From: a virus
Lineage: Duplodnaviria; Heunggongvirae; Uroviricota; Caudoviricetes
Strand: one strand, 5' to 3'
Virus record (IMG/VR): IMGVR_UViG_2529292873_000004
Coordinates: 1 to 7,213 of that record
DNA length: 7,213 nt
Shown: piece by piece, positions 1 to 7,213 of the stretch
Layout: every line of letters starts with the position of its first letter
How positions within the stretch are numbered: the stretch's first letter is position 1
Position numbers and translations under genes: made by a program
The notes under the pieces: generated by a model
The model's database searches: none
The model's input: the letters and a program-made list of their open reading frames with translations, nothing else
Told to the model about the DNA's origin: nothing

Positions 1-150
1 GACCCGACACTGATTCGAAAGTTACCTGACGGAGAAATACGTCGTTACAACAGACGGCAGAACATAATTTGTCGTGAGTGCCGCCAGAGCGAAGTTATGC
101 AGCGTGTGCTGGCGTTCTATCGGGGAAACTTTCAGGAGGCGGTACTGTGA
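1..150 (+). CDS. 3' end of an upstream phage gene (partial, runs off the window start); unknown product with a CxxC pair near the C-terminus
   Basis: Open frame from position 1 to TGA at 148-150 (…IICRECRQSEVMQRVLAFYRGNFQEAVL). The stop overlaps an in-frame GTG of the next gene (GTGA at 147-150). No family recognised. Confidence 0.4.
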   Translation, partial: DPTLIRKLPDGEIRRYNRRQNIICRECRQSEVMQRVLAFYRGNFQEAVL

Positions 151-206
151 GTGAATTAGCTATCAGGCTTCAATTGTCGCTGGCATTCGCATCAAAGGAG
201 AATGAG

Positions 207-791
207 ATGACCACTTTTACAAAAGAGCAGTTAATCAGTCATGTTAGTGAAAATGTAAAGGCGATGAAATTTGCAGTAAAACAGACAGCATTCAAAAATT
301 CTCTCGAGGCAATTGAGTTGGATTTAGCACTGGCCCTTGTTGCTCAGGCTTCGCTGGAAGCAGAGCCCGTGCTTTATATGAATCGATTTACCGGAAAGAC
401 ATTCTCACTGGAAGAGCAACCCGGTGCTGATAAGGAACCGGAAATATACGTGCCGCTATATGCTGCCCCGCCAGACAGCGCCGCCATGCTTCAGGCTGGA
501 AACTTTCGGGAAAATAAGGGTTCGTCAACCAATAATTTTCGGGAAATCTCGGAAACGTCAACCAACTATCCGGTAACTCTGGATGGTTGGATAAGCTGTA
601 GTGAGCGAATGCCGGATGACGGTCAGCACGTAATTATTTTATGTGATGGCGCATTCGTTCTTTATGCGCAATATCGAGACGGTGAGTTTTTTGATGTAGT
701 CCGTGATGGTGATGAATTTTTCGAAACACAGAGCCGCAATGTAACCGACTGGATGCCGCTACCAGAACCGCCGCAGGAGGTGCGCCAATGA
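207..791 (+). CDS. DUF551-like lambdoid phage protein
   Basis: ATG at 207 preceded by AAGGAG (195-200) at 6-nt spacing. C-terminal region (…ERMPDDGQHVIILCDG…WMPLPEPP) matches my recollection of the DUF551 signature. Alternative start GTG 147 (GGAGG at 133-137) would overlap the upstream stop; the table ORF 78..791 is a further upstream extension. Confidence 0.65.
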   Translation: MTTFTKEQLISHVSENVKAMKFAVKQTAFKNSLEAIELDLALALVAQASLEAEPVLYMNRFTGKTFSLEEQPGADKEPEIYVPLYAAPPDSAAMLQAGNFRENKGSSTNNFREISETSTNYPVTLDGWISCSERMPDDGQHVIILCDGAFVLYAQYRDGEFFDVVRDGDEFFETQSRNVTDWMPLPEPPQEVRQ

Positions 792-905
792 CTGGCCTGA
801 AGCATTTGCAATTACAGGCGTTGCTATAGCTATTGCTTTTTTAGTATATGTTATTTGTCGGTGGGGGTAAAAACGTTCGCCGGGATTCACACCAAAGGAG
901 GGAAT

Positions 906-1010
906 ATGTCGGATGATATTTCACTGGCAATGGAAGGTGCGCTGGCTGTTATTGCTGTTGTGGGCGTTTACTGCCTGGTTGTGTTTTTGATGGATCGACT
1001 AGGGAACTGA
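906..1010 (+). CDS. small hydrophobic membrane peptide (34 aa), unknown function
   Basis: ATG 906 preceded by AAGGAGG (895-901). Product MSDDISLAMEGALAVIAVVGVYCLVVFLMDRLGN has an acidic N-terminus and one predicted transmembrane helix. Below the ORF-track length cutoff. Confidence 0.4.
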   Translation: MSDDISLAMEGALAVIAVVGVYCLVVFLMDRLGN

Positions 1011-1018
1011 ATTCATTA

Positions 1019-1040
1019 CGATATGGGAATTCCCATATCG
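1019..1040. repeat. 22-bp perfect palindrome CGATATGGGAATTCCCATATCG
   Basis: Read directly: the two 11-nt halves are exact reverse complements (9-bp stem, AAUU loop as RNA). Lies 8 nt after the stop of the 906-1010 peptide and just upstream of the predicted hok promoter. No U-tract on either strand. Confidence 0.7.
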
Positions 1041-1051
1041 GGTAAAAACGG

Positions 1052-1080
1052 TTTGCGGTAAAGCGAGAGTTAAGTAGAAT
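1052..1080 (+). promoter_or_regulatory. putative hok mRNA promoter (-35 TTGCGG about 1053-1058, -10 TAGAAT 1075-1080)
   Basis: The -10 sits 5-7 nt upstream of position 1085, where the 5' segment complementary to the mRNA 3' end begins. No experimental start site. Confidence 0.35.
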
Positions 1081-1139
1081 TGCTGCGGGTGCTTGAGGCT
1101 ATCTGCCTCGGGCATGAACACCAACGGCAGATAGAGAAA

Positions 1140-1207
1140 AGCCCCAGTTAACATTACGCGTCCGGCAAGACGCTTAACATTAATCTGAGGCCATATCTAT
1201 GCTCTAC
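1140..1207 (-). ncRNA. sok: putative Sok-like antisense RNA
   Basis: Minus-strand promoter-like elements: -35 TTGCCT (plus 1237-1242), 17-bp spacer, -10 TAACCT (plus 1214-1219), giving a start near 1206 and a transcript antisense to the mok SD and start codon (1187-1201). 3' end not defined; no clean terminator identified. Confidence 0.3.
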
Positions 1208-1411
1208 ACACGTAGGTTAGCCTCTTACGTGCCGAAAGGCAAGGAGAAGCAGGCTATGAAGCAGCAAAAGGCGATGTTAATTGCCCTGATCGTCATCTGT
1301 TTAACCGTCATAGTGACGGCACTGGTAACGAGGAAAGACCTCTGCGAGGTACGAATCCGAACCGGCCAGACGGAGGTCGCTGTCTTCACAGCTTACGAAC
1401 CTGAGGAGTAA
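1199..1411 (+). CDS. mok: Mok-like overlapping reading frame (in-frame N-terminal extension of hok)
   Basis: ATG 1199 with GAGG (1187-1190) at 8-nt spacing, in frame with hok and sharing its stop. Same architecture as I recall for E. coli MokC/HokC. Confidence 0.5.
   Translation: MLYTRRLASYVPKGKEKQAMKQQKAMLIALIVICLTVIVTALVTRKDLCEVRIRTGQTEVAVFTAYEPEE
1256..1411 (+). CDS. hok: Hok/Gef family type I toxin (51 aa membrane peptide)
   Basis: ATG 1256 with AGGAG (1242-1246). Product MKQQKAMLIALIVICLTVIVTALVTRKDLCEVRIRTGQTEVAVFTAYEPEE: single TM helix plus the conserved TRKDLCEVRIRTGQTEVAVF core of Hok/Gef/RelF proteins; closest to HokD/RelF from memory. Confidence 0.85.
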   Translation: MKQQKAMLIALIVICLTVIVTALVTRKDLCEVRIRTGQTEVAVFTAYEPEE

Positions 1412-1478
1412 GAGACCAGGCGGGGGAGAAATCCCTCGCCACCTCTCATGTGTCAGGCATCCTTAACGCACCCGCACT

Positions 1479-1501
1479 AAACCCGCTTCGGCGGGTTTTT
1501 T
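1479..1501 (+). terminator. rho-independent terminator at the 3' end of the hok transcript
   Basis: AAACCCGC-TTCG-GCGGGTTTTTT: GC-rich stem, 4-nt loop, 6-T run. Immediately downstream of the segment (1461-1475) complementary to the mRNA 5' end. Confidence 0.6.
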
Positions 1502-1686
1502 GTTGCGCGCTGAATGCGCAGGGTGAAAAATAACCATATATTTGATTATATACACAACAAAAAATAAAAGTCATTGTACCTGCACATTAAATAATCAAAT
1601 ATACGGCGTGAAATAAATATTTTTCAGATTAATATTTTTGTCTCTATGTGGATATAACCGTTTGTACTTATAAACTCGGAGGCATC

Positions 1687-1899
1687 GTGGAAAAAATAAA
1701 GAAACTATTTAGTTGCAAATACGCAGTCATACGTCGTGATGACCTGTCAGTTATAGTCGAAATGGATTACTTCCCTGAAACCCCAAAATCAATGATGTAT
1801 CGTAATGGTCGAAAGGCAATTTTTTTACCGATGAGGGTAAGTGACATTATGGGAAATGATAAACTGCTGGATGAATTGCGAGTCAGAGCATCCTGTTAG
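1687..1899 (+). CDS. hypothetical small basic protein (70 aa), unrecognised
   Basis: GTG 1687 preceded by GGAGG (1677-1681) at 5-nt spacing (table ORF 1648..1899 is the same frame from an upstream GTG). Product VEKIKKLFSCKYAVIRRDDLSVIVEMDYFPETPKSMMYRNGRKAIFLPMRVSDIMGNDKLLDELRVRASC; no TM segment. Preceded by a strongly AT-rich stretch (about 1500-1650). Confidence 0.45.
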   Translation: MEKIKKLFSCKYAVIRRDDLSVIVEMDYFPETPKSMMYRNGRKAIFLPMRVSDIMGNDKLLDELRVRASC

Positions 1900-1914
1900 T
1901 ATTGGCATTAATTC

Positions 1915-1923
1915 TGGTATACT
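1915..1923 (+). promoter_or_regulatory. possible extended -10 element (TGgTATACT) upstream of the DUF1367 gene
   Basis: TG at 1915-1916, one spacer base, hexamer TATACT 1918-1923. No good -35 at proper spacing. Confidence 0.25.
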
Positions 1924-1970
1924 ACATAACGGGCTGAACACCCATTCTACTGCGCCAGCGGAGAACTACG

Positions 1971-2570
1971 ATGGCGCATATACAACTGGTCAAACAAACC
2001 TCTTCCGGATTACTTCTCCCGGCGACGCCGGAGAGTTGCGATTTTTTGCATCAAATCAAAATAGGTGAGTGGATACACGCAGACTTTAAGCGTGTGCGTA
2101 ACTACGCATTCCACAAGCGTTTTTTCAAACTTCTGCAACTCGGATTCGATTACTGGACTCCGGTCGGTGGGGCGATCACTCCTCGCGAACGAAAACTGGT
2201 GTCCGGTTTCGTTGATTATCTGTGTGAATCAGTAGGCCGGGAACATACGCCAGCTCTGAGCGAAGCCGCAGAGCAATATCTGAATACAGTTGCGACACGC
2301 AGAACCCGAGATACAGCATTGCTAAAGTCGTTTGAGGCTTTCCGCGAGTGGGTAACCATTCAGGCCGGATTTTACACCGAGCATATTTATCCGGACGGTA
2401 GCCGTGGGCGCAGGGCGAAATCCATCTCGTTTGCGAATATGGACGAAACCGAGTTTCAGCAGGTTTATAAATCTGTGCTGAATGTACTGTGGAACTGGAT
2501 CCTGTTCCGTAAATTTTCCTCTCCGGAACAAGTCGAAAATGTGGCCGCGCAGCTACTGGAGTTTGCGTAA
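1971..2570 (+). CDS. DUF1367-like lambdoid phage protein
   Basis: ATG 1971 with GGAG (1960-1963) at 7-nt spacing; 199 aa. The N-terminal pattern (…LPATPES.DFLHQIKIGEWIHADFKRVRNYAFHKRFFKLLQLGFDYWTP…) matches my recollection of DUF1367. Stop overlaps the next start (TAATG at 2568-2572). Confidence 0.7.
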   Translation: MAHIQLVKQTSSGLLLPATPESCDFLHQIKIGEWIHADFKRVRNYAFHKRFFKLLQLGFDYWTPVGGAITPRERKLVSGFVDYLCESVGREHTPALSEAAEQYLNTVATRRTRDTALLKSFEAFREWVTIQAGFYTEHIYPDGSRGRRAKSISFANMDETEFQQVYKSVLNVLWNWILFRKFSSPEQVENVAAQLLEFA

Positions 2571-2860
2571 TGGTGGATTTACGTAAAGCGGCGCGGGGGC
2601 AGATGTGCACCGTCAGAATTCCTGGCTACTGCAATCACGATCCGGAAACGTCTGTGCTGGCGCATTACCGACTGGCGGGAACGTGCGGAACAGCGATAAA
2701 GCCACACGATATGCAGGCAGCGATTGCCTGTAACTCATGCCACGATTTAATCGACGGGAGAGTAAAAACCAGCGATTACACCAAAGAAGAATTGCGCCTG
2801 ATGCATGCAGAAGGTGTTTTTCGCACACAAGAGATCTGGAGAAAGGACGGTTATTTATGA
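2570..2860 (+). CDS. DUF1364 / YbcO-like phage protein (cysteine-rich, putative nuclease)
   Basis: ATG 2570; 96 aa MVDLRKAARGQMCTVRIPGYCNHDPETSVLAHYRL…IACNSCHD… with the conserved Cys/His pattern I recall for E. coli DLP12 YbcO. Stop overlaps the next start (ATGA at 2857-2860). Confidence 0.7.
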   Translation: MVDLRKAARGQMCTVRIPGYCNHDPETSVLAHYRLAGTCGTAIKPHDMQAAIACNSCHDLIDGRVKTSDYTKEELRLMHAEGVFRTQEIWRKDGYL

Positions 2861-3411
2861 TTTACCCAACGAACACAGGAAAAAGCGGAGAGCACCTTCG
2901 TCTCACCACGCTGGAAAGTGTCTGGATCCAGGGGAAACTGCGTATGTGGGGGCGTTGGTCGTATATTGGCGACGGTAAGACGGGAAATATGTTCAACCAA
3001 TTACTGACCTCTAAAAAGCTGACAAAAACGGCAATTAACGAGGCGCTCCGGAGGATGAAAAAAGCAGGTCTGGACAAACCTGAACTTGAGGCTTTTTTGC
3101 GGGATATGATCAACGGCAAGCAAAAAAGCTGGCTGGTGCATTGTACCGATTCAGAGGCGTTAATAATCGACAGGGTTATTGGTGAAGTACTGGCAGGTTA
3201 TCCCGGGCTGCTCAATGTTCTGAGTCAGCGTTATGTGGGGCGGGGGATGACTAAGCGCAAAATGGCTGAACTGCTGAATGATGCACATCCGGAATGGAGT
3301 TTAAGAACCTGTGAAAGACGCATTGAGCATTGGCTAAAGGTGGCAGAATTTATTTTGTACAAACCAATGGTTATGGCTTTTGGTATAGAGAAAAAAGTTA
3401 TTGCTTTTTGA
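2857..3411 (+). CDS. putative late-gene antiterminator Q-like protein (assigned by position; not lambda-Q-like in sequence)
   Basis: ATG 2857 coupled to the upstream stop; 184 aa with a possible HTH near the C-terminus (…GMTKRKMAELLNDAHPEWSLRTCERRIEHWL…). Sits where Q lies in Stx-type phages, directly upstream of a terminator and the tRNA cluster. Table ORF 2737..3411 is an upstream extension overlapping the DUF1364 gene. Confidence 0.5.
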   Translation: MIYPTNTGKSGEHLRLTTLESVWIQGKLRMWGRWSYIGDGKTGNMFNQLLTSKKLTKTAINEALRRMKKAGLDKPELEAFLRDMINGKQKSWLVHCTDSEALIIDRVIGEVLAGYPGLLNVLSQRYVGRGMTKRKMAELLNDAHPEWSLRTCERRIEHWLKVAEFILYKPMVMAFGIEKKVIAF

Positions 3412-3487
3412 CGTAAAAACTGCTTTAATTCCGGTAAGCTTCGCAAAGCTGTATCGCGAGGCGAACCAAACGCATGAACTTTACCAG
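3401..3487 (+). promoter_or_regulatory. putative late promoter PR' / qut region (approximate)
   Basis: Candidate -35 TTGCTT (3401-3406), 17-bp spacer, -10 TTTAAT (3424-3429), preceded by an A-tract; alternative -35 TTGACG (3408-3413) lacks a good -10. Assigned mainly by position between Q and the terminator. Confidence 0.3.
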
Positions 3488-3511
3488 AACCCGCCATTGA
3501 GCGGGTTTTTT
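3488..3511 (+). terminator. rho-independent terminator (tR'-like) between Q and the tRNA cluster
   Basis: AACCCGC-CATTGA-GCGGGTTTTTT: 6-7 bp GC-rich stem, 6-nt loop, T-run 3507-3511. Confidence 0.6.
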
Positions 3512-3550
3512 ATTGCGGAATTAATTACGGACCGTTATTATTCTGCTCCC

Positions 3551-3626
3551 GGCCCTTTAGCTCAGTGGTGAGAGCGAGCGACTCATAATCGCCAGGTCGC
3601 TGGTTCAAATCCAGCAAGGGCCACCA
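3551..3626 (+). tRNA. tRNA-Ile (anticodon CAU, presumably lysidine-modified to read AUA; tRNA-Met not formally excluded)
   Basis: 76 nt GGCCCTTTAGCTCAGTGG…CTCATAA…GGTTCAAATCC…AGGGCCACCA. Perfect 7-bp acceptor stem, canonical T-arm, anticodon loop CTCATAA, encoded CCA. Very similar to E. coli ileX as I recall it; position matches ileZ of Stx phages. Confidence 0.8.
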
Positions 3627-3635
3627 TATCACATA

Positions 3636-3713
3636 CCGCCATTAGCTCATCGGGATAGAGCGTCAGCCTTCGAAGCTGGCTGTGCGGGGTTCGGAGTCCC
3701 CGATGGCGGTCCA
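3636..3713 (+). tRNA. tRNA-Arg (anticodon UCG by my fold), atypical
   Basis: 78 nt; perfect 7-bp acceptor stem CCGCCAT/ATGGCGG, D-arm GCTC…GAGC, anticodon stem TCAGC/GCTGG, loop CTTCGAA, encoded CCA. Unusual: C1:G72 start and an apparent 8-nt T-loop (TTCGGAGT). Confidence 0.6.
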
Positions 3714-3726
3714 TTATCGGTATTCT

Positions 3727-3803
3727 GCGTTGTTAGCTCAGCCGGACAGAGCAATTGCCTTCTAAGCAATCGGTCACTGGTTCGAATCCAGTACAACGCG
3801 CCA
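3727..3803 (+). tRNA. tRNA-Arg (anticodon UCU, reads AGA)
   Basis: 77 nt GCGTTGTTAGCTCAGCCGGACAGAGCAATTGCCTTCTAAGCAATCGGTCACTGGTTCGAATCCAGTACAACGCGCCA. Perfect acceptor stem, canonical T-arm, anticodon loop CTTCTAA; resembles E. coli argU. Confidence 0.85.
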
Positions 3804-4089
3804 CACCACACTTATCTGCCCTGACTCTCTTTTGCGGGCTTTTTATTACAGGAAAGACACCGGACAGTGAAATGTTAAATGCCTCACAATTCAGGTAGTC
3901 GACTGTTGCCTGACATGCTGAGCGTTTGTTAAAAAAATCCTGCATGATGAATCCCCCTGGGCGGCGGGGCATAATGACAGATGTTTGGTTGCGTATTGTA
4001 TAGGCAAGTTGCGGATTCTGTCTGGTCATTGCAGAATTCACCGGGAGGCACCCGGCATCATGCTGTATACAGAGATTAGGCATATATCC

Positions 4090-4114
4090 AGGCTCTCATC
4101 GCAGGAGCCTTTTT
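4090..4114 (+). terminator. possible weak rho-independent terminator (+ strand)
   Basis: AGGCTC-(9-nt loop)-GAGCCT followed by TTTTT (4110-4114). Confidence 0.35.
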
Positions 4115-4120
4115 ACATGC

Positions 4121-4145
4121 AAAAAAAGCCCGAGTAGGTTCGGGC
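4121..4145 (-). terminator. rho-independent terminator acting on the minus strand
   Basis: Plus strand shows A7 (4121-4127) then GCCCGA-GTAGGT-TCGGGC (4128-4145); on the minus strand this is a 6-bp GC-rich hairpin followed by U7. No T-run on the plus side. Confidence 0.5.
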
Positions 4146-4179
4146 AACAGCATGAGATACTTGCATTGTCATTTTTATC
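4121..4179 (-). ncRNA. candidate small RNA (about 60 nt) on the minus strand; hypothesis only
   Basis: Minus-strand promoter-like elements: -35 TTGCGC (plus 4210-4215), 18-bp spacer, -10 TAAAAT (plus 4186-4191), predicted start near 4179, ending at the minus-strand terminator 4121-4145. No convincing ORF. Confidence 0.2.
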
Positions 4180-4205
4180 GTGTGGATTTTAACCAGGGTT
4201 TATAA

Positions 4206-4230
4206 GGCTGCGCAACTGCGCGGCCTTTTT
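4206..4230 (+). terminator. rho-independent terminator (+ strand) about 100 nt upstream of the esterase gene
   Basis: GGCTGCGC-AACT-GCGCGGCC (8-bp stem with one G-U pair) followed by TTTTT (4226-4230). Confidence 0.5.
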
Positions 4231-4330
4231 CGTATTTCGGGCTGTAGTCTTCCTTCTGCCATTGTCCTGTAACTTCCGGACTTCAGCCTGCTCTTTATCT
4301 GATTCAGTACTATCCCGGCCGGGAGGATTC

Positions 4331-6277
4331 ATGACATTTAAACATTACGATGTGGTCAGGGCGGCATCGCCGTCAGACCTTGCTGATGCACTTGCGCAAA
4401 AAATTCGTGAAGGATGGCAACCATATGGTGGGCCGTTTTCTTCGTATACGGATGATGGCGCAGCACTTATTCAGGCGATTGTCGCAGAAGGTGATGTGAG
4501 CACACCTGTTGTGGTGAAGCCGACAGGTGGAGAAGGTGCAGTAATCAGCGCCACCAGCGACCCGGAGTATTACTTTGTTGTGGTTCTGGCAGGGCAGTCA
4601 AATGGCATGTCGTATGGTGAAGGTCTTCCGCTGCCGGAGACATATGACCGTCCGGACCCGCGTATTAAGCAACTGGCGCGCCGCAGTACGGTGACACCGG
4701 GCGGTGTCGCCTGTAAATATAACGACATCATTCCGGCGGACCATTGTCTGCATGATGTGCAGGACATGAGCCGTCTTAACCATCCGAAAGCGGACCTGTC
4801 AAAGGGGCAGTACGGAACCGTGGGGCAGGGGCTGCATATCGCCAAAAAACTGCTGCCGTTTATACCGGCGAATGCGGGTATTCTGCTGGTTCCGTGCTGT
4901 CGTGGTGGTTCAGCGTTCACCACCGGAGCTGATGGCACATACAGTGACGCGAGTGGTGCCTCGGAGAATTCAACCCGCTGGGGTGTGGACAAGCCGCTGT
5001 ATAAGGACCTTATCGGTCGAACAAAAGCAGCACTGAAGAAGAACCCGAAAAATGTGCTGTTTGCCGTGGTGTGGATGCAGGGGGAATTTGATTTTGGCGG
5101 GACGCCGGCAAATCATGCCGCACAGTTTGGTGCGCTGGTTGATAAATTCCGTGCAGACCTGACGGATATGGCAGGTCAGTGCGTTGGTGGCTCTGCTGGC
5201 GGTGTTCCCTGGATCTGTGGAGATACGACGTATTTCTGGAAGCAGAAGAACGAATCCTCGTACCAGACGGTGTACGGCAGCTACAAAAACAAAACGGAAA
5301 AGAATATCCATTTCGTACCGTTCATGACCGATGAGAACGGGGTGAATGTGCCGACGAACAAACCGGAAGAAGACCCGGACATTCCGGGTATCGGGTATTA
5401 CGGTTCGAAATGGCGTGACAGCTCAGCCACCTGGACGTCACAGGACAGGGCGAGCCATTTCAGTTCATGGGCTCGCCGCGGGATTATTTCCGACCGTCTG
5501 GCAACGGCGATTTTGCGCCATGCGGGAAGAGTGGCGCTAAACGCGGGGGCATCATCGACAGTATCAGAGGTGCGCCCGTCATCGTCTTCCGGTGCAGAAG
5601 CCACAGGCGTCACAACACTGCTCTCTTACCTTGCCAGCGAGTCAGAGGGAAGCCTGAAAGTACAGGGATGGTCAGCCAGTGGCGGCAGGGCAGAAGTGGT
5701 CAGCGATGCGGAGGGAACCGGAGGTAAGGCAGTGAAGCTGACCAAGGAAGCAGGTAAAAGCAGCTGGGTGCTGGAGTACGCCGCGGGCAACGGTGCGGCT
5801 CTGTTACAGAAAGGGGGGCAGATTCGCTGCCGCTTTAAGGTTTCGGGAGCGCTGGCTGCGAACCAGTATGTTATGGCGTTTTACTGGCCGGTATCTTCAC
5901 TGCCACAGGGCGTTGCCCTGACCGGAGACGGGGGGAATAACCTGCTGGCAGCGTTCTACATCCAGACAGATGCAAAAGACCTGAATGTGATGTACCACAA
6001 TGCGAAAGTGGCGACAAACAACCTGAAACTGGGAACCTTTGGCGCATTTGATAACGAATGGCATACGCTGGCTTTCCGCTTTGCCGGGAATAACAGCCTT
6101 CAGGTGACGCCGGTTATTGATGGTCAGGATGGCACACCGTTCACGCTGACGCAGTCACCGGTCAGTGCATTTGCGGCGGATAAACTGCATGTGACAGACA
6201 TTACCAGGAATGCGACTTACCCGGTGCTGATTGACAGCATTGCGGTGGAAGTGAACAGCACAGACACTGCGGCATGA
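4331..6277 (+). CDS. prophage NanS-p-like sialate O-acetylesterase (N-terminal DUF1737-like region, SASA/SGNH-type esterase domain, uncharacterised C-terminal domain)
   Basis: ATG 4331 with GGGAGG (4321-4326); 648 aa. Esterase motif …VVVLAGQSNGMSYGEG… as in NanS/YjhS-type enzymes. Size and position (downstream of Q and tRNAs, upstream of the holin) match the large esterase ORF of Stx2 phages. Table ORF 4262..6277 is an upstream extension without an RBS. Confidence 0.8.
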   Translation: MTFKHYDVVRAASPSDLADALAQKIREGWQPYGGPFSSYTDDGAALIQAIVAEGDVSTPVVVKPTGGEGAVISATSDPEYYFVVVLAGQSNGMSYGEGLPLPETYDRPDPRIKQLARRSTVTPGGVACKYNDIIPADHCLHDVQDMSRLNHPKADLSKGQYGTVGQGLHIAKKLLPFIPANAGILLVPCCRGGSAFTTGADGTYSDASGASENSTRWGVDKPLYKDLIGRTKAALKKNPKNVLFAVVWMQGEFDFGGTPANHAAQFGALVDKFRADLTDMAGQCVGGSAGGVPWICGDTTYFWKQKNESSYQTVYGSYKNKTEKNIHFVPFMTDENGVNVPTNKPEEDPDIPGIGYYGSKWRDSSATWTSQDRASHFSSWARRGIISDRLATAILRHAGRVALNAGASSTVSEVRPSSSSGAEATGVTTLLSYLASESEGSLKVQGWSASGGRAEVVSDAEGTGGKAVKLTKEAGKSSWVLEYAAGNGAALLQKGGQIRCRFKVSGALAANQYVMAFYWPVSSLPQGVALTGDGGNNLLAAFYIQTDAKDLNVMYHNAKVATNNLKLGTFGAFDNEWHTLAFRFAGNNSLQVTPVIDGQDGTPFTLTQSPVSAFAADKLHVTDITRNATYPVLIDSIAVEVNSTDTAA

Positions 6278-6278
6278 T

Positions 6279-6314
6279 AAAAAAACCGCCAGCGACAGGA
6301 ATGGACGCTGGCGG
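6279..6314 (-). terminator. rho-independent terminator oriented for minus-strand transcription, immediately after the esterase stop
   Basis: Plus strand shows A7 (6279-6285) then CCGCCAGCG-(11-nt loop)-CGCTGGCGG (6286-6314); on the minus strand this is a 9-bp perfect stem followed by U7. Downstream on the plus strand is TGGTAATA, so it is weak in the + direction. Confidence 0.5.
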
Positions 6315-6413
6315 TGGTAATACCTATGGAGAAAAAATAAAGGAACGATACTTTCGTGCTCTGGTTTTTTAAATGAAAACAGTTCTTATTGTCAACAATA
6401 ACGGAAAGAAATT

Positions 6414-6593
6414 ATGACATTTCTGAACCAGTTAATGCTGTACTTCTGTACGGTGGTCTGTGTGCTGTATCTCCTTTCGGGTGGGTACAGGGCCATGCGT
6501 GACTTCTGGCGCAGACAGATTGACAAAAGGGCCGCTGAGAAAATCAGCGCCGGTCAGTCAGCCGGAAGCAAACCCGAAGAGCCGCTCATTTAG
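6414..6593 (+). CDS. hypothetical small membrane protein (59 aa)
   Basis: ATG 6414 (weak GGAAAG upstream) to TAG 6591-6593. Product MTFLNQLMLYFCTVVCVLYLLSGGYRAMRDFWRRQIDKRAAEKISAGQSAGSKPEEPLI: one N-terminal TM helix and a basic tail. Below the table cutoff; overlaps the 5' part of table ORF 6460..6906 in another frame. Confidence 0.35.
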   Translation: MTFLNQLMLYFCTVVCVLYLLSGGYRAMRDFWRRQIDKRAAEKISAGQSAGSKPEEPLI

Positions 6594-6633
6594 CGGCAAC
6601 TTTCTTAATCACACCTTTCGACGAGAAAATCCC

Positions 6634-6906
6634 ATGTCAGAAATTACATCCCTGGTCACTGCAGAGGCAGTGAAGGAAGTCCTGCGCTCTGAAGAAGTCC
6701 TGAGCGCACTGAAACAAAAACTTCGCCATAACCTGGAAGCGCGTCTTGATGCAGAGGTTGATGCCATTCTGGATGAGCTGCTTGGTGTACAGGCAGAGCC
6801 ACCGACTGAAGCGGGAGATACCACCGCAGAGAGCGGTGAAGTTCAGCCTGAATCACCGGTCGCCGATGCGACTGAACCTCAACCCGAATCGGTCATGATG
6901 CTGTAA
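6634..6906 (+). CDS. hypothetical small acidic protein (90 aa)
   Basis: In-frame ATG 6634 of table ORF 6460..6906, weak SD (GAGAAA). Product [51 protein letters not shown]… then an E/D/T/P-rich tail. Family not recognised. Confidence 0.45.
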
Positions 6907-6917
6907 CGGGGAGTCAG

Positions 6918-6947
6918 GGCCATCAGTAAACAGCTGCTGGCCTTTTT
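6918..6947 (+). terminator. possible rho-independent terminator upstream of the holin gene
   Basis: GGCCATCAG-(7-nt loop)-CTGCTGGCC (9-bp stem with one mismatch) followed by TTTTT (6943-6947). Confidence 0.4.
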
Positions 6948-6982
6948 CATGTTGTGAGCTTCCGGATAACGGGAGACGGGGT

Positions 6983-7198
6983 ATGTACCAGATGGAAAAA
7001 ATCACAACAGGTGTGTCATACACCACGTCAGCGGTGGGGACGGGATACTGGTTACTGCAGCTGCTGGACAAAGTCTCTCCGTCCCAGTGGGTGGCAATAG
7101 GCGTGCTGGGGAGTCTGCTGTTTGGTCTGCTGACGTACCTGACGAACCTGTATTTCAAAATCAGAGAAGACCGGCGTAAGGCGGCGCGGGGAGAGTAG
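6983..7198 (+). CDS. S: class I holin (lambdoid S-type) with dual-start motif
   Basis: ATG 6983 with GGGAGACGGGG upstream; 71 aa [71 protein letters not shown]. Hydrophobic segments plus a charged C-terminal tail; two start codons (Met1, Met4) as in holin/antiholin pairs. Matches my recollection of the 933W-type S holin. Confidence 0.85.
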
Positions 7199-7201
7199 AC
7201 G

Positions 7202-7213
7202 ATGAACCATGAA
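7202..7213 (+). CDS. 5' end of the next late gene (partial; presumably endolysin R by position)
   Basis: ATG 7202, 3 nt after the holin stop (7196-7198), reading MNHE… before the window ends. Assignment by synteny only. Confidence 0.3.

Follow-up and report, generated by a model that had tools for sequence, protein, structure and literature searches.

A convergent pair of small RNA genes very probably lies in the argO-to-esterase gap of a cargo-less EHEC-type lambdoid prophage

Positions 1 to 7,213 of the IMG/VR virus record IMGVR_UViG_2529292873_000004 (the window) are the late-regulatory region of a lambdoid prophage of the type found in enterohaemorrhagic Escherichia coli (EHEC). The tRNA-argO gene ends at 3803 and a sialate O-acetylesterase gene starts at 4331, leaving a gap of 527 bp (3804-4330) that lies downstream of a Q-like antiterminator gene and upstream of the esterase and lysis genes, in an order that matches the Shiga toxin (Stx) phage 933W and prophage Sp9 of E. 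coli Sakai. The closest complete genome, E. coli 2013C-4974, is 97.5% identical across the whole window and 97.7% in the gap, and its RefSeq annotation has no feature and no coding sequence between argO and the esterase gene. A first-pass annotation of the window had taken this interval for the empty equivalent of the slot that holds stxAB in Stx phages. A permissive Rfam scan of the window, together with a consensus terminator scan (with shuffled sequences as controls) and hairpin energies from RNAfold, places two convergent small RNA (sRNA) genes in the gap, among the following features.

3818-3844, plus strand: T1, a weak terminator after argO; hairpin 3818-3839 (GCCC/GGGC followed by TTTTT), -6.0 kcal/mol, marginal.
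3845-3868, no strand: cargo junction filler of about 25-29 bp; homology with 933W ends at 3844 and resumes at about 3869-3884.
3869-3895, plus strand: conserved box AAATGTTAAATGCCTCACAATTCAG, at the 5' edge of the STnc100-type gene.
3913-4120 (Rfam model bounds), plus strand: STnc100-family sRNA gene; RF02076, 165.7 bits.
4090-4115, plus strand: T2, terminator of the STnc100-type sRNA (4090-4110 in the scan), -9.7 kcal/mol; the 3' stem-loop of the Rfam STnc100 consensus.
4128-4145 (stem) and 4121-4127 (U-tail), minus strand: T3, terminator of the anti-sRNA (4145-4128 in the scan), -11.1 kcal/mol.
4180-4121, minus strand: anti-sRNA gene of the AgvB/AsxR/EcOnc03 family, EcOnc03 type, including T3; RF02702, 56.2 bits.
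4181-4215, minus strand: putative anti-sRNA promoter, -10 TAAAAT at 4191-4186 and -35 TTGCGC at 4215-4210, from sequence inspection alone.
4204-4232, plus strand: T4, the strongest plus-strand terminator (4204-4227 in the scan, 10 pairs), -18.3 kcal/mol.
4238-4330, plus strand: structured 5' leader of the esterase gene, with a 13-bp hairpin (4238-4250/4278-4290) and a small hairpin (4313-4323); RNAfold energy -21.5 kcal/mol.

The plus-strand gene matches the STnc100 model over its full length (model positions 1-206 of 206), with 165.7 bits against a gathering score of 47 (E = 2.4e-38). It is a homologue of EcOnc28 in Sakai Sp9, where the sequence is 99% identical, and of EcOnc27/sRNA103 in Stx2 phages. 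A read fragment of Sakai EcOnc28 obtained by crosslinking, with ligation of the RNAs and sequencing of the resulting hybrids (CLASH), is an exact substring of the window (3979-4040, plus strand). The box AAATGTTAAATGCCTCACAATTCAG probably holds the promoter -10 element or the transcription start of this gene, the candidate promoter reading cGGACA-18-CACAAT. Northern sizes of the Sakai homologues range from 222 to 247 nt, and EcOnc27, which is the same RNA as sRNA103 and the plus-strand homologue in Stx2 phages, runs at about 235/247 nt (Tree et al., 2014; PMC4104026). A start near 3886-3897, at the CACAAT of the box, would give an RNA of 220-235 nt and is probably the correct one because it fits these sizes; a second candidate promoter at 3910-3938 would give about 173 nt.

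Members of the anti-sRNA family were defined as RNAs of 51-60 nt in which about 42 nt on the 3' side are conserved (GUAUCUCAUGC..UUGCCCGAACC...GGGC and a U-tail) and 14-18 nt on the 5' side vary. The core pattern is found on the minus strand of the window at 4160-4137, joined to a 5' region identical to that of the EcOnc03 type. Compared with published EcOnc03, 50 of 51 nt agree, the one mismatch lying in the terminator loop (CCUA instead of CCCA); the 5' 38 nt are exact and include the whole variable region. A CLASH read fragment of Sakai EcOnc3 is again an exact substring of the window (4179-4137, minus strand). The promoter region (4181-4215) is 100% identical to that of Sakai Sp9 and hardly varies among loci of the AgvB, AsxR and EcOnc03 types, 114 of which give 33 distinct sequences. 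The 5' region was also paired by RNAduplex with GcvB, FnrS and RyhB of MG1655, with shuffled controls and with AgvB-GcvB and AsxR-FnrS as positive controls. Its duplex with GcvB reached -11.5 kcal/mol (z = 0.06), against -19.9 kcal/mol (z = -2.1) for AgvB, and its pairing with FnrS gave z = -0.11. AgvB proper is marked by a 5' region that mimics the GcvB target consensus and pairs with the R1 seed of GcvB, and AsxR proper by a 5' region complementary to the terminator loop of FnrS and by a place 3' of stx2B. The features of AgvB proper are therefore missing, since the GcvB-target mimic CACAACA is absent and pairing with GcvB stays at the level of shuffles; so are those of AsxR proper, with 44 bits for the AsxR model RF02703 (gathering score 63), FnrS pairing at shuffle level and no stx2. 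By its sequence the minus-strand gene is EcOnc03 and not functionally AgvB or AsxR, though Rfam files it under AgvB at threshold. The supplement of an RNase E-CLASH study contains about 85 EcOnc3 hybrids, with gene ontology enrichment for cation transport and iron homeostasis (mntH, fieF, bfr) (PMC5286369); this is a hint, to be taken as a lead only, that these manganese/iron homeostasis mRNAs are partners of EcOnc03.

The same convergent sRNA pair, or dyad, has been described at this late-region site, with EcOnc27/AsxR after stx2B in Sp5, AgvB in Sp10 and Sp17, and EcOnc28/EcOnc03 in Sp9 (Tree et al., 2014; PMC4104026). In that work EcOnc28 appears as a peak in Sp9 after crosslinking and analysis of cDNA (CRAC) with Hfq, and EcOnc03, which ranks third in abundance among the orphan Hfq-CRAC sites of Sakai, is seen on Northern blots at 56/54/51 nt and is destabilised in a delta-hfq strain (PMC4104026). 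Rfam finds the dyad at the same position in Sakai Sp9, one Stx1 phage and two AgvB-type loci as well as in 933W, where the arrangement is the same (STnc100, 207.7 bits; AsxR, 88.1 bits). The locus is already known and ordinary for such prophages, a member of the published STnc100/EcOnc03-type dyad class.

Two statements of the first-pass annotation, that the gap has no credible open reading frame (ORF) and that no remnant of stx is visible in it, were borne out. The ORFs in the gap measure 30-116 aa on both strands; the longest, of 116 aa at 3733-4083 on the minus strand, runs antisense through tRNA-argO and had no match in a Pfam search. Searches by tblastn with Stx2A/B of 933W and Stx1A/B of an IMG/VR Stx1 phage returned noise only (best E about 0.09 in the whole window and about 9 within the gap), and blastn-short of the stx1 and stx2 cassettes against the gap gave no match to stx coding sequence, the sole match being sequence that is shared after stxB. 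These ORFs, and a fragment that the Prokaryotic Genome Annotation Pipeline (PGAP) calls a hypothetical protein in some homologous gaps, could be taken as signs of one or more small proteins, and not RNAs, encoded in the gap. However, what PGAP called is a partial pseudogene of 144 nt, the 116-aa ORF lies opposite a tRNA and lacks a Pfam match, alignments with 933W show indels of 1, 2, 5 and 7 nt per 60-bp bin, and conservation tracks the RNA stems and terminators, so that protein-coding content of this kind has next to no probability.

Hairpins resembling terminators do lie where the first-pass annotation had put them, three being recovered by the scan and a weak fourth having -6.0 kcal/mol. 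The three compare with 0.58 expected from shuffles of the 527-bp gap (Poisson P about 0.02), and each is followed by a T-run. The reading of these hairpins as an insulating stack may hold for T1 and T4, which lie outside the sRNA genes, but not for T2 and T3, which are the ends of the two genes; the tails of T2 and T3 are about 5 nt apart, terminators of opposite-strand genes facing each other. T1 is homologous to the annotated 933W 'terminator upstream of the stx genes' (aligning to 21385-21408). Its stem is degraded in the window and in Sakai Sp9 (GACTCTC, against GGCTCGC in 933W and in locus L025), and with the stem mutated, transcripts from the tRNA promoter may read into the STnc100-type gene. 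T4, which belongs to neither sRNA, shares sequence with the -35 region of the anti-sRNA promoter. Its 8-bp core is invariant except for one change from G-C to G-U among 10 distinct alleles, and it is kept in all three dyad classes. The most economical prediction for T4 is a back-stop against read-through from the tRNA and sRNA genes into the esterase and lysis genes in lysogens. The 13-bp hairpin of the esterase leader starts right after T4, and three of its pairs show compensatory double changes (RNAalifold, 10 distinct alleles), while the small hairpin touches the Shine-Dalgarno sequence GGGAGG (4321-4326). An Rfam scan of the leader gave no family match; its hairpins are a possible cis-regulatory element for nanS-p.

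What the first-pass annotation had proposed in full was that the whole 525 bp is an unoccupied, gene-free slot whose terminator stack insulates the esterase and lysis genes and leaves them dependent on antitermination. A gap with neither ORF nor stx speaks for this proposal, as do four terminators of which T1 and T4 are not sRNA ends and T4 is strong and conserved, and a Q-like gene upstream; the downstream late genes plausibly do need Q antitermination for expression. On the other hand, two curated RNA families match the gap, their RNAs have been detected experimentally in Sakai, and discrete sRNAs are already on record for Sakai Sp9, where the locus is 99% identical. T2 and T3 terminate these sRNA genes, and an insulator needs neither a terminator on the minus strand nor 97-100% conservation over 300 bp of intervening sequence. 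Comparison with 933W adds a further objection. There the order is argO, the annotated terminator, stxA2, stxB2, 486 bp without annotation and the esterase gene L0105. By blastn, window 3511-3844 aligns to 933W from the tRNA promoter through the post-argO terminator (91%), and window 3884-7197 aligns from 46 bp past the stxB2 stop codon onward (92%). Thus 1341 bp of 933W (the stx promoter, stxA2 and stxB2, with a further 45 bp) stand opposite merely 39 bp in the window (3845-3883). The tRNA cluster and the annotated pT promoter, from window 3511, are 91-100% identical to 933W. Window 3884-4330, which is 85% of the gap, aligns at 82.1% to 441 bp of unannotated sequence directly upstream of the esterase gene in more than 120 Stx2a-phage records, so that the stretch shared between stxB and the esterase gene measures 441 bp in Stx2a phages and 447 bp in the window; coverage of the gap reaches 80% or more in 167 phage records. 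The first-pass annotation had itself named ordinary intergenic sequence of the same length upstream of the esterase gene in Stx phages as the observation that would overturn it, and for 85% of the interval this is what the alignments give. With most of the interval lying downstream of stxB in Stx phages at nearly equal length, a gene-free insulating slot is highly improbable.

The slot can be placed more narrowly. Explicit junction alignments shift the right edge of the cargo site leftward, to about 3869. In L025, which is of the cargo-less class, the argO terminator T1 abuts AAATGTCTCACAATTCAG directly with 0 bp of filler, and in all representatives, whichever cargo they carry, the box AAATGTTAAATGCCTCACAATTCAG comes after stx1B, stx2B (in a diverged form), TerB-like cargo or T1. 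The 80 bp at 3804-3883 are 100% identical in Sakai Sp9 and in L002, L005, L008 and L009, and most cargo-less viral contigs of the EcOnc03 type match 3804-3883. The true slot is a point junction with 0-29 bp of filler and not a 525-bp interval; relatives carry at it nothing, a TerB-like gene, stx1 or stx2. The first-pass annotation was right that a late-region cargo ('moron') position lies here and that stxAB is absent from it, while the 525-bp interval that it named is neither the slot nor empty. Toxin cassettes are positioned immediately upstream of the sRNA dyad. Three IMG/VR loci (L042, L069 and L017) have a 143-aa TerB-like protein at the slot, either by itself or together with two ORFs of about 70 aa. 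The motif TATCTGCG directly after the argO terminator is common to alleles with different cargo (stx2 and TerB-type), and cargo-less alleles are without it.

A sliding identity profile in 60-bp bins, comparing the window with 933W (L003) and Sakai Sp9 (L004), bears on how the cargo-less state arose. Over window 3691-4230, identity to the stx-less Sakai Sp9 is 97-100%, against 49-90% to 933W across the dyad. From T4 on (4221-4280, at 100%, and again from about 4700) the window is 92-100% identical to 933W and 60-80% to Sp9. The switch from Sp9-like (to about 4230) to 933W-like sequence (from about 4221) falls within the T4 terminator, which is conserved. An Sp9-type dyad and a Stx2-phage-type esterase gene thus make the window a mosaic, and not a Stx2 phage minus stx. 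The position of the joint suggests that terminators may serve as recombination joints for the exchange of sRNA modules.

The first-pass annotation had allowed that the site was vacated. On such a view the prophage would recently have carried stxAB and lost it by a deletion that left the flanks. The closeness of these flanks to 933W-type Stx2 phages is in keeping with such a loss (the tRNA cluster at 88-100% in 60-bp bins, 4221-4280 at 100%, and the esterase gene from about 4700 at 92-100%), and 25 bp at 3870-3894 are similar to what directly follows stx1B (88%, E = 0.019). However, neither an stx remnant nor a deletion scar was found, and the segment from T1 to T4 is of the Sp9 type and not the Stx2-phage allele, its STnc100 gene being only 77% identical and its anti-sRNA of the EcOnc03 type instead of AsxR. 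Because 3691-4230 matches the stx-less Sp9 at 97-100%, exchange of the whole module by recombination at the conserved T1 and T4 fits better than deletion. The same junction is also widespread, and seven sequenced stx-negative phages have a related cargo-less junction (Lahn2, TL-2011a, the PPwrbA phages and phi296/315/367). A recent loss of stxAB from this prophage is therefore unlikely.

To place the window among its relatives, IMG/VR was scanned with the conserved anti-sRNA core, and the window and four fetched reference loci were added, giving 124 loci with the core. By the 5' region, 61 are of the AgvB type, 44 of the EcOnc03 type (the second commonest of the three) and 18 of the AsxR type, which puts the EcOnc03-type anti-sRNA on a par in frequency with its characterised relatives. 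All 18 AsxR-type loci have stx2AB upstream. The EcOnc03 type follows stx1AB in 6 loci, and in about 35 of its 44 loci argO lies at the window's distance (about 357-360 bp); the AgvB type has no cargo or a TerB-like cassette of 0.65-1.3 kb. The anti-sRNA allele thus travels with the cargo, AsxR with stx2 and the EcOnc03 type with stx1 or with none. In the Stx1 phages L028, L037, L041, L113, L114 and L120, the anti-sRNA downstream of stx1B is of the EcOnc03 type, like that of the window; the STnc100 gene linked to it there is near-identical only in the 3' 91 nt, its 5' half being another allele. At least 80% of the gap is present in 748 of 5426 complete E. coli genomes. No sequenced phage holds the whole window, the best phage matches covering 3511-7197 only and being interrupted by stx.

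The genes around the gap follow the order DUF551, hok/sok, DUF1367, YbcO-like, Q-like, three tRNAs, gap, esterase, DUF1378, DUF826 and P21-type holin. Those that frame the argument are as follows.

2857-3411, plus strand: Q-like antiterminator gene (DUF1133 and Phage_antitermQ).
3551-3803, plus strand: ileZ-argN-argO tRNA cluster (tRNA-Ile(CAU)/Arg/Arg; ARAGORN and Rfam tRNA), the left border of the gap.
4331-6277 (ATG at 4331), plus strand: nanS-p-type sialate O-acetylesterase gene, 648 aa (Pfam SASA, DUF6645 and DUF1737), the right border of the gap; homologous to 933W L0105 by blastn.
6983-7198, plus strand: P21-type holin gene (Pfam).

A strong terminator at 3486-3510 (plus strand, -13.1 kcal/mol) lies about 75 nt past the Q-like gene. 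It is probably the tR' of the late promoter PR', and would give a short PR' leader RNA; Stx phages make StxS at the corresponding position. The Q/PR' module of the window is of another type than that of 933W, because homology with 933W begins only at 3511, at the pT tRNA promoter. Further upstream, a complete hok/sok type I toxin-antitoxin module lies at 1087-1411 on the plus strand (sok, RF01794, 111.7 bits; Hok, PF01848), with a strong terminator after it at 1479-1498, from which comes an isrK-like Rfam match below threshold (31 bits against a gathering score of 50). Between the DUF826 and holin genes (6907-6982, plus strand) there is a hairpin GGCCA...TGGCC followed by TTTTTC; the sRNAs PasA and PasC have been placed between esterase and holin (Zhu, Shabalina and Storz, 2026; preprint, 10.64898/2026.05.13.724894). 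An Esr41-like Rfam match at 6277-6354 on the minus strand (29.6 bits against a gathering score of 102), which overlaps the esterase terminator, was set aside as due to chance or to the terminator only, as were the other sub-threshold matches in or near the gap (Leu_leader, Trp_leader and isrK). HnrS (EcOnc10-12), a multicopy prophage sRNA that is also present in Sp9, lies elsewhere in the late region, outside the gap.

Taken together, it is very probable that the interval is the usual sRNA locus in the late region of EHEC-type lambdoid prophages, here without cargo. The plus strand would run from the Q-like gene, PR' and the tR'-like terminator through the pT promoter and ileZ-argN-argO to T1, which would end the tRNA transcript. 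The cargo junction would come next, then the STnc100-type sRNA up to T2, the converging EcOnc03-type anti-sRNA of about 56-60 nt up to T3, the promoter of the latter, T4, and the leader with the esterase gene. In the lysogen, both sRNAs would be transcribed from their own promoters and would act in trans on host RNAs, EcOnc03 presumably through its variable 5' region, by analogy with AgvB on GcvB and AsxR on FnrS, while T1, T2 and T4 would stop unmodified plus-strand transcription. After induction, RNA polymerase modified by Q would be expected to read through T1, T2 and T4 into the esterase and lysis genes.

Several points weigh against this account. The evidence for expression and Hfq binding comes from another locus, Sakai Sp9, which is 97-100% identical. 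Neither of the two candidate promoters for the STnc100-type RNA is a strong consensus match. The EcOnc03-type RNA barely reaches the AgvB gathering score (56.2 against 56 bits for RF02702), and the pairing of its 5' region with GcvB, FnrS and RyhB stays at the level of shuffles, so that the term 'anti-sRNA' is used here by analogy with relatives. The sRNA genes leave T1 and T4 unexplained, and the insulating role given to both is our inference. A wider proposal can be made only tentatively and is rather doubtful: in cargo-less prophages the dyad itself might be the payload, with EcOnc03 as a third anti-sRNA specificity, and T4 and the leader hairpin together might form an undescribed cis-element that gates expression of the esterase and lysis genes. 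The sRNA locus nevertheless corrects a common way of reading such maps, as regions of prophage late operons with 'no ORF' are not empty; this one holds RNAs of the kind that rewire host sRNA networks in EHEC. AgvB sponges GcvB, and AsxR destabilises FnrS and so affects haem use.

Among known systems, the EcOnc28/EcOnc03 locus of Sakai Sp9 shares with the window argO, the identical 80-bp junction and the dyad, followed by a conserved ORF. The two differ in that argN is kept in the window but absent from Sp9, and in that the window has a 933W-like leader and esterase gene past T4, where Sp9 has ECs_1781 (about 60-75% identical). Upstream, the window has its DUF1133 Q-like gene, while Sp9 has another antiterminator and a methylase. 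The EcOnc27/AsxR dyad of the Stx2 phages Sp5 and 933W is a homologous locus of the same architecture and shares the promoter region, T4 and the leader. In contrast to the window, the Stx2 allele has stx2AB immediately upstream, and its STnc100 gene is just 77% identical. The 5' region of the anti-sRNA is CGAUUAUUAAAACGA in AsxR of Stx2 phages and CGAUAAAAAUGACAAUGCAA in the window, and because these regions differ, the FnrS-directed activity of AsxR cannot be assumed for the window. Single-nucleotide polymorphisms in EcOnc27, the STnc100 homologue of Stx2 phages, have been reported as predictors of haemolytic uraemic syndrome (PMC12711010). AgvB (EcOnc01)/EcOnc06 of Sakai Sp10 and Sp17 is alike in Rfam family, in the conserved 3' region of about 42 nt, in promoter and in position, but the window lacks ACAACACAACA, the mimic of the GcvB target.

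Outside these dyads, PasD/STnc100 sRNAs lie directly upstream of the sialate esterase genes of prophages in enteropathogenic E. coli and EHEC, and STnc100 matches are frequent in the flanks of sialate esterase genes (Zhu, Shabalina and Storz, 2026; 10.64898/2026.05.13.724894). PasD resembles the window's gene as a structured, Hfq-associated sRNA directly upstream of a prophage sialic-acid esterase gene. The window copy differs in being a full-length match of the STnc100 type and not of the PasD type, an assignment that comes from the Rfam STnc100 model. Finally, insertion sites for morons in lambdoid phages have been placed downstream of PR' (Juhala et al., 2000, as cited in Tree et al., 2014; PMC4104026). 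The window differs from them in that its position is unoccupied, with a junction of 0-39 bp rather than a 527-bp interval; it is like them in having, between the late promoter and the lysis genes, a cargo position whose occupants vary.

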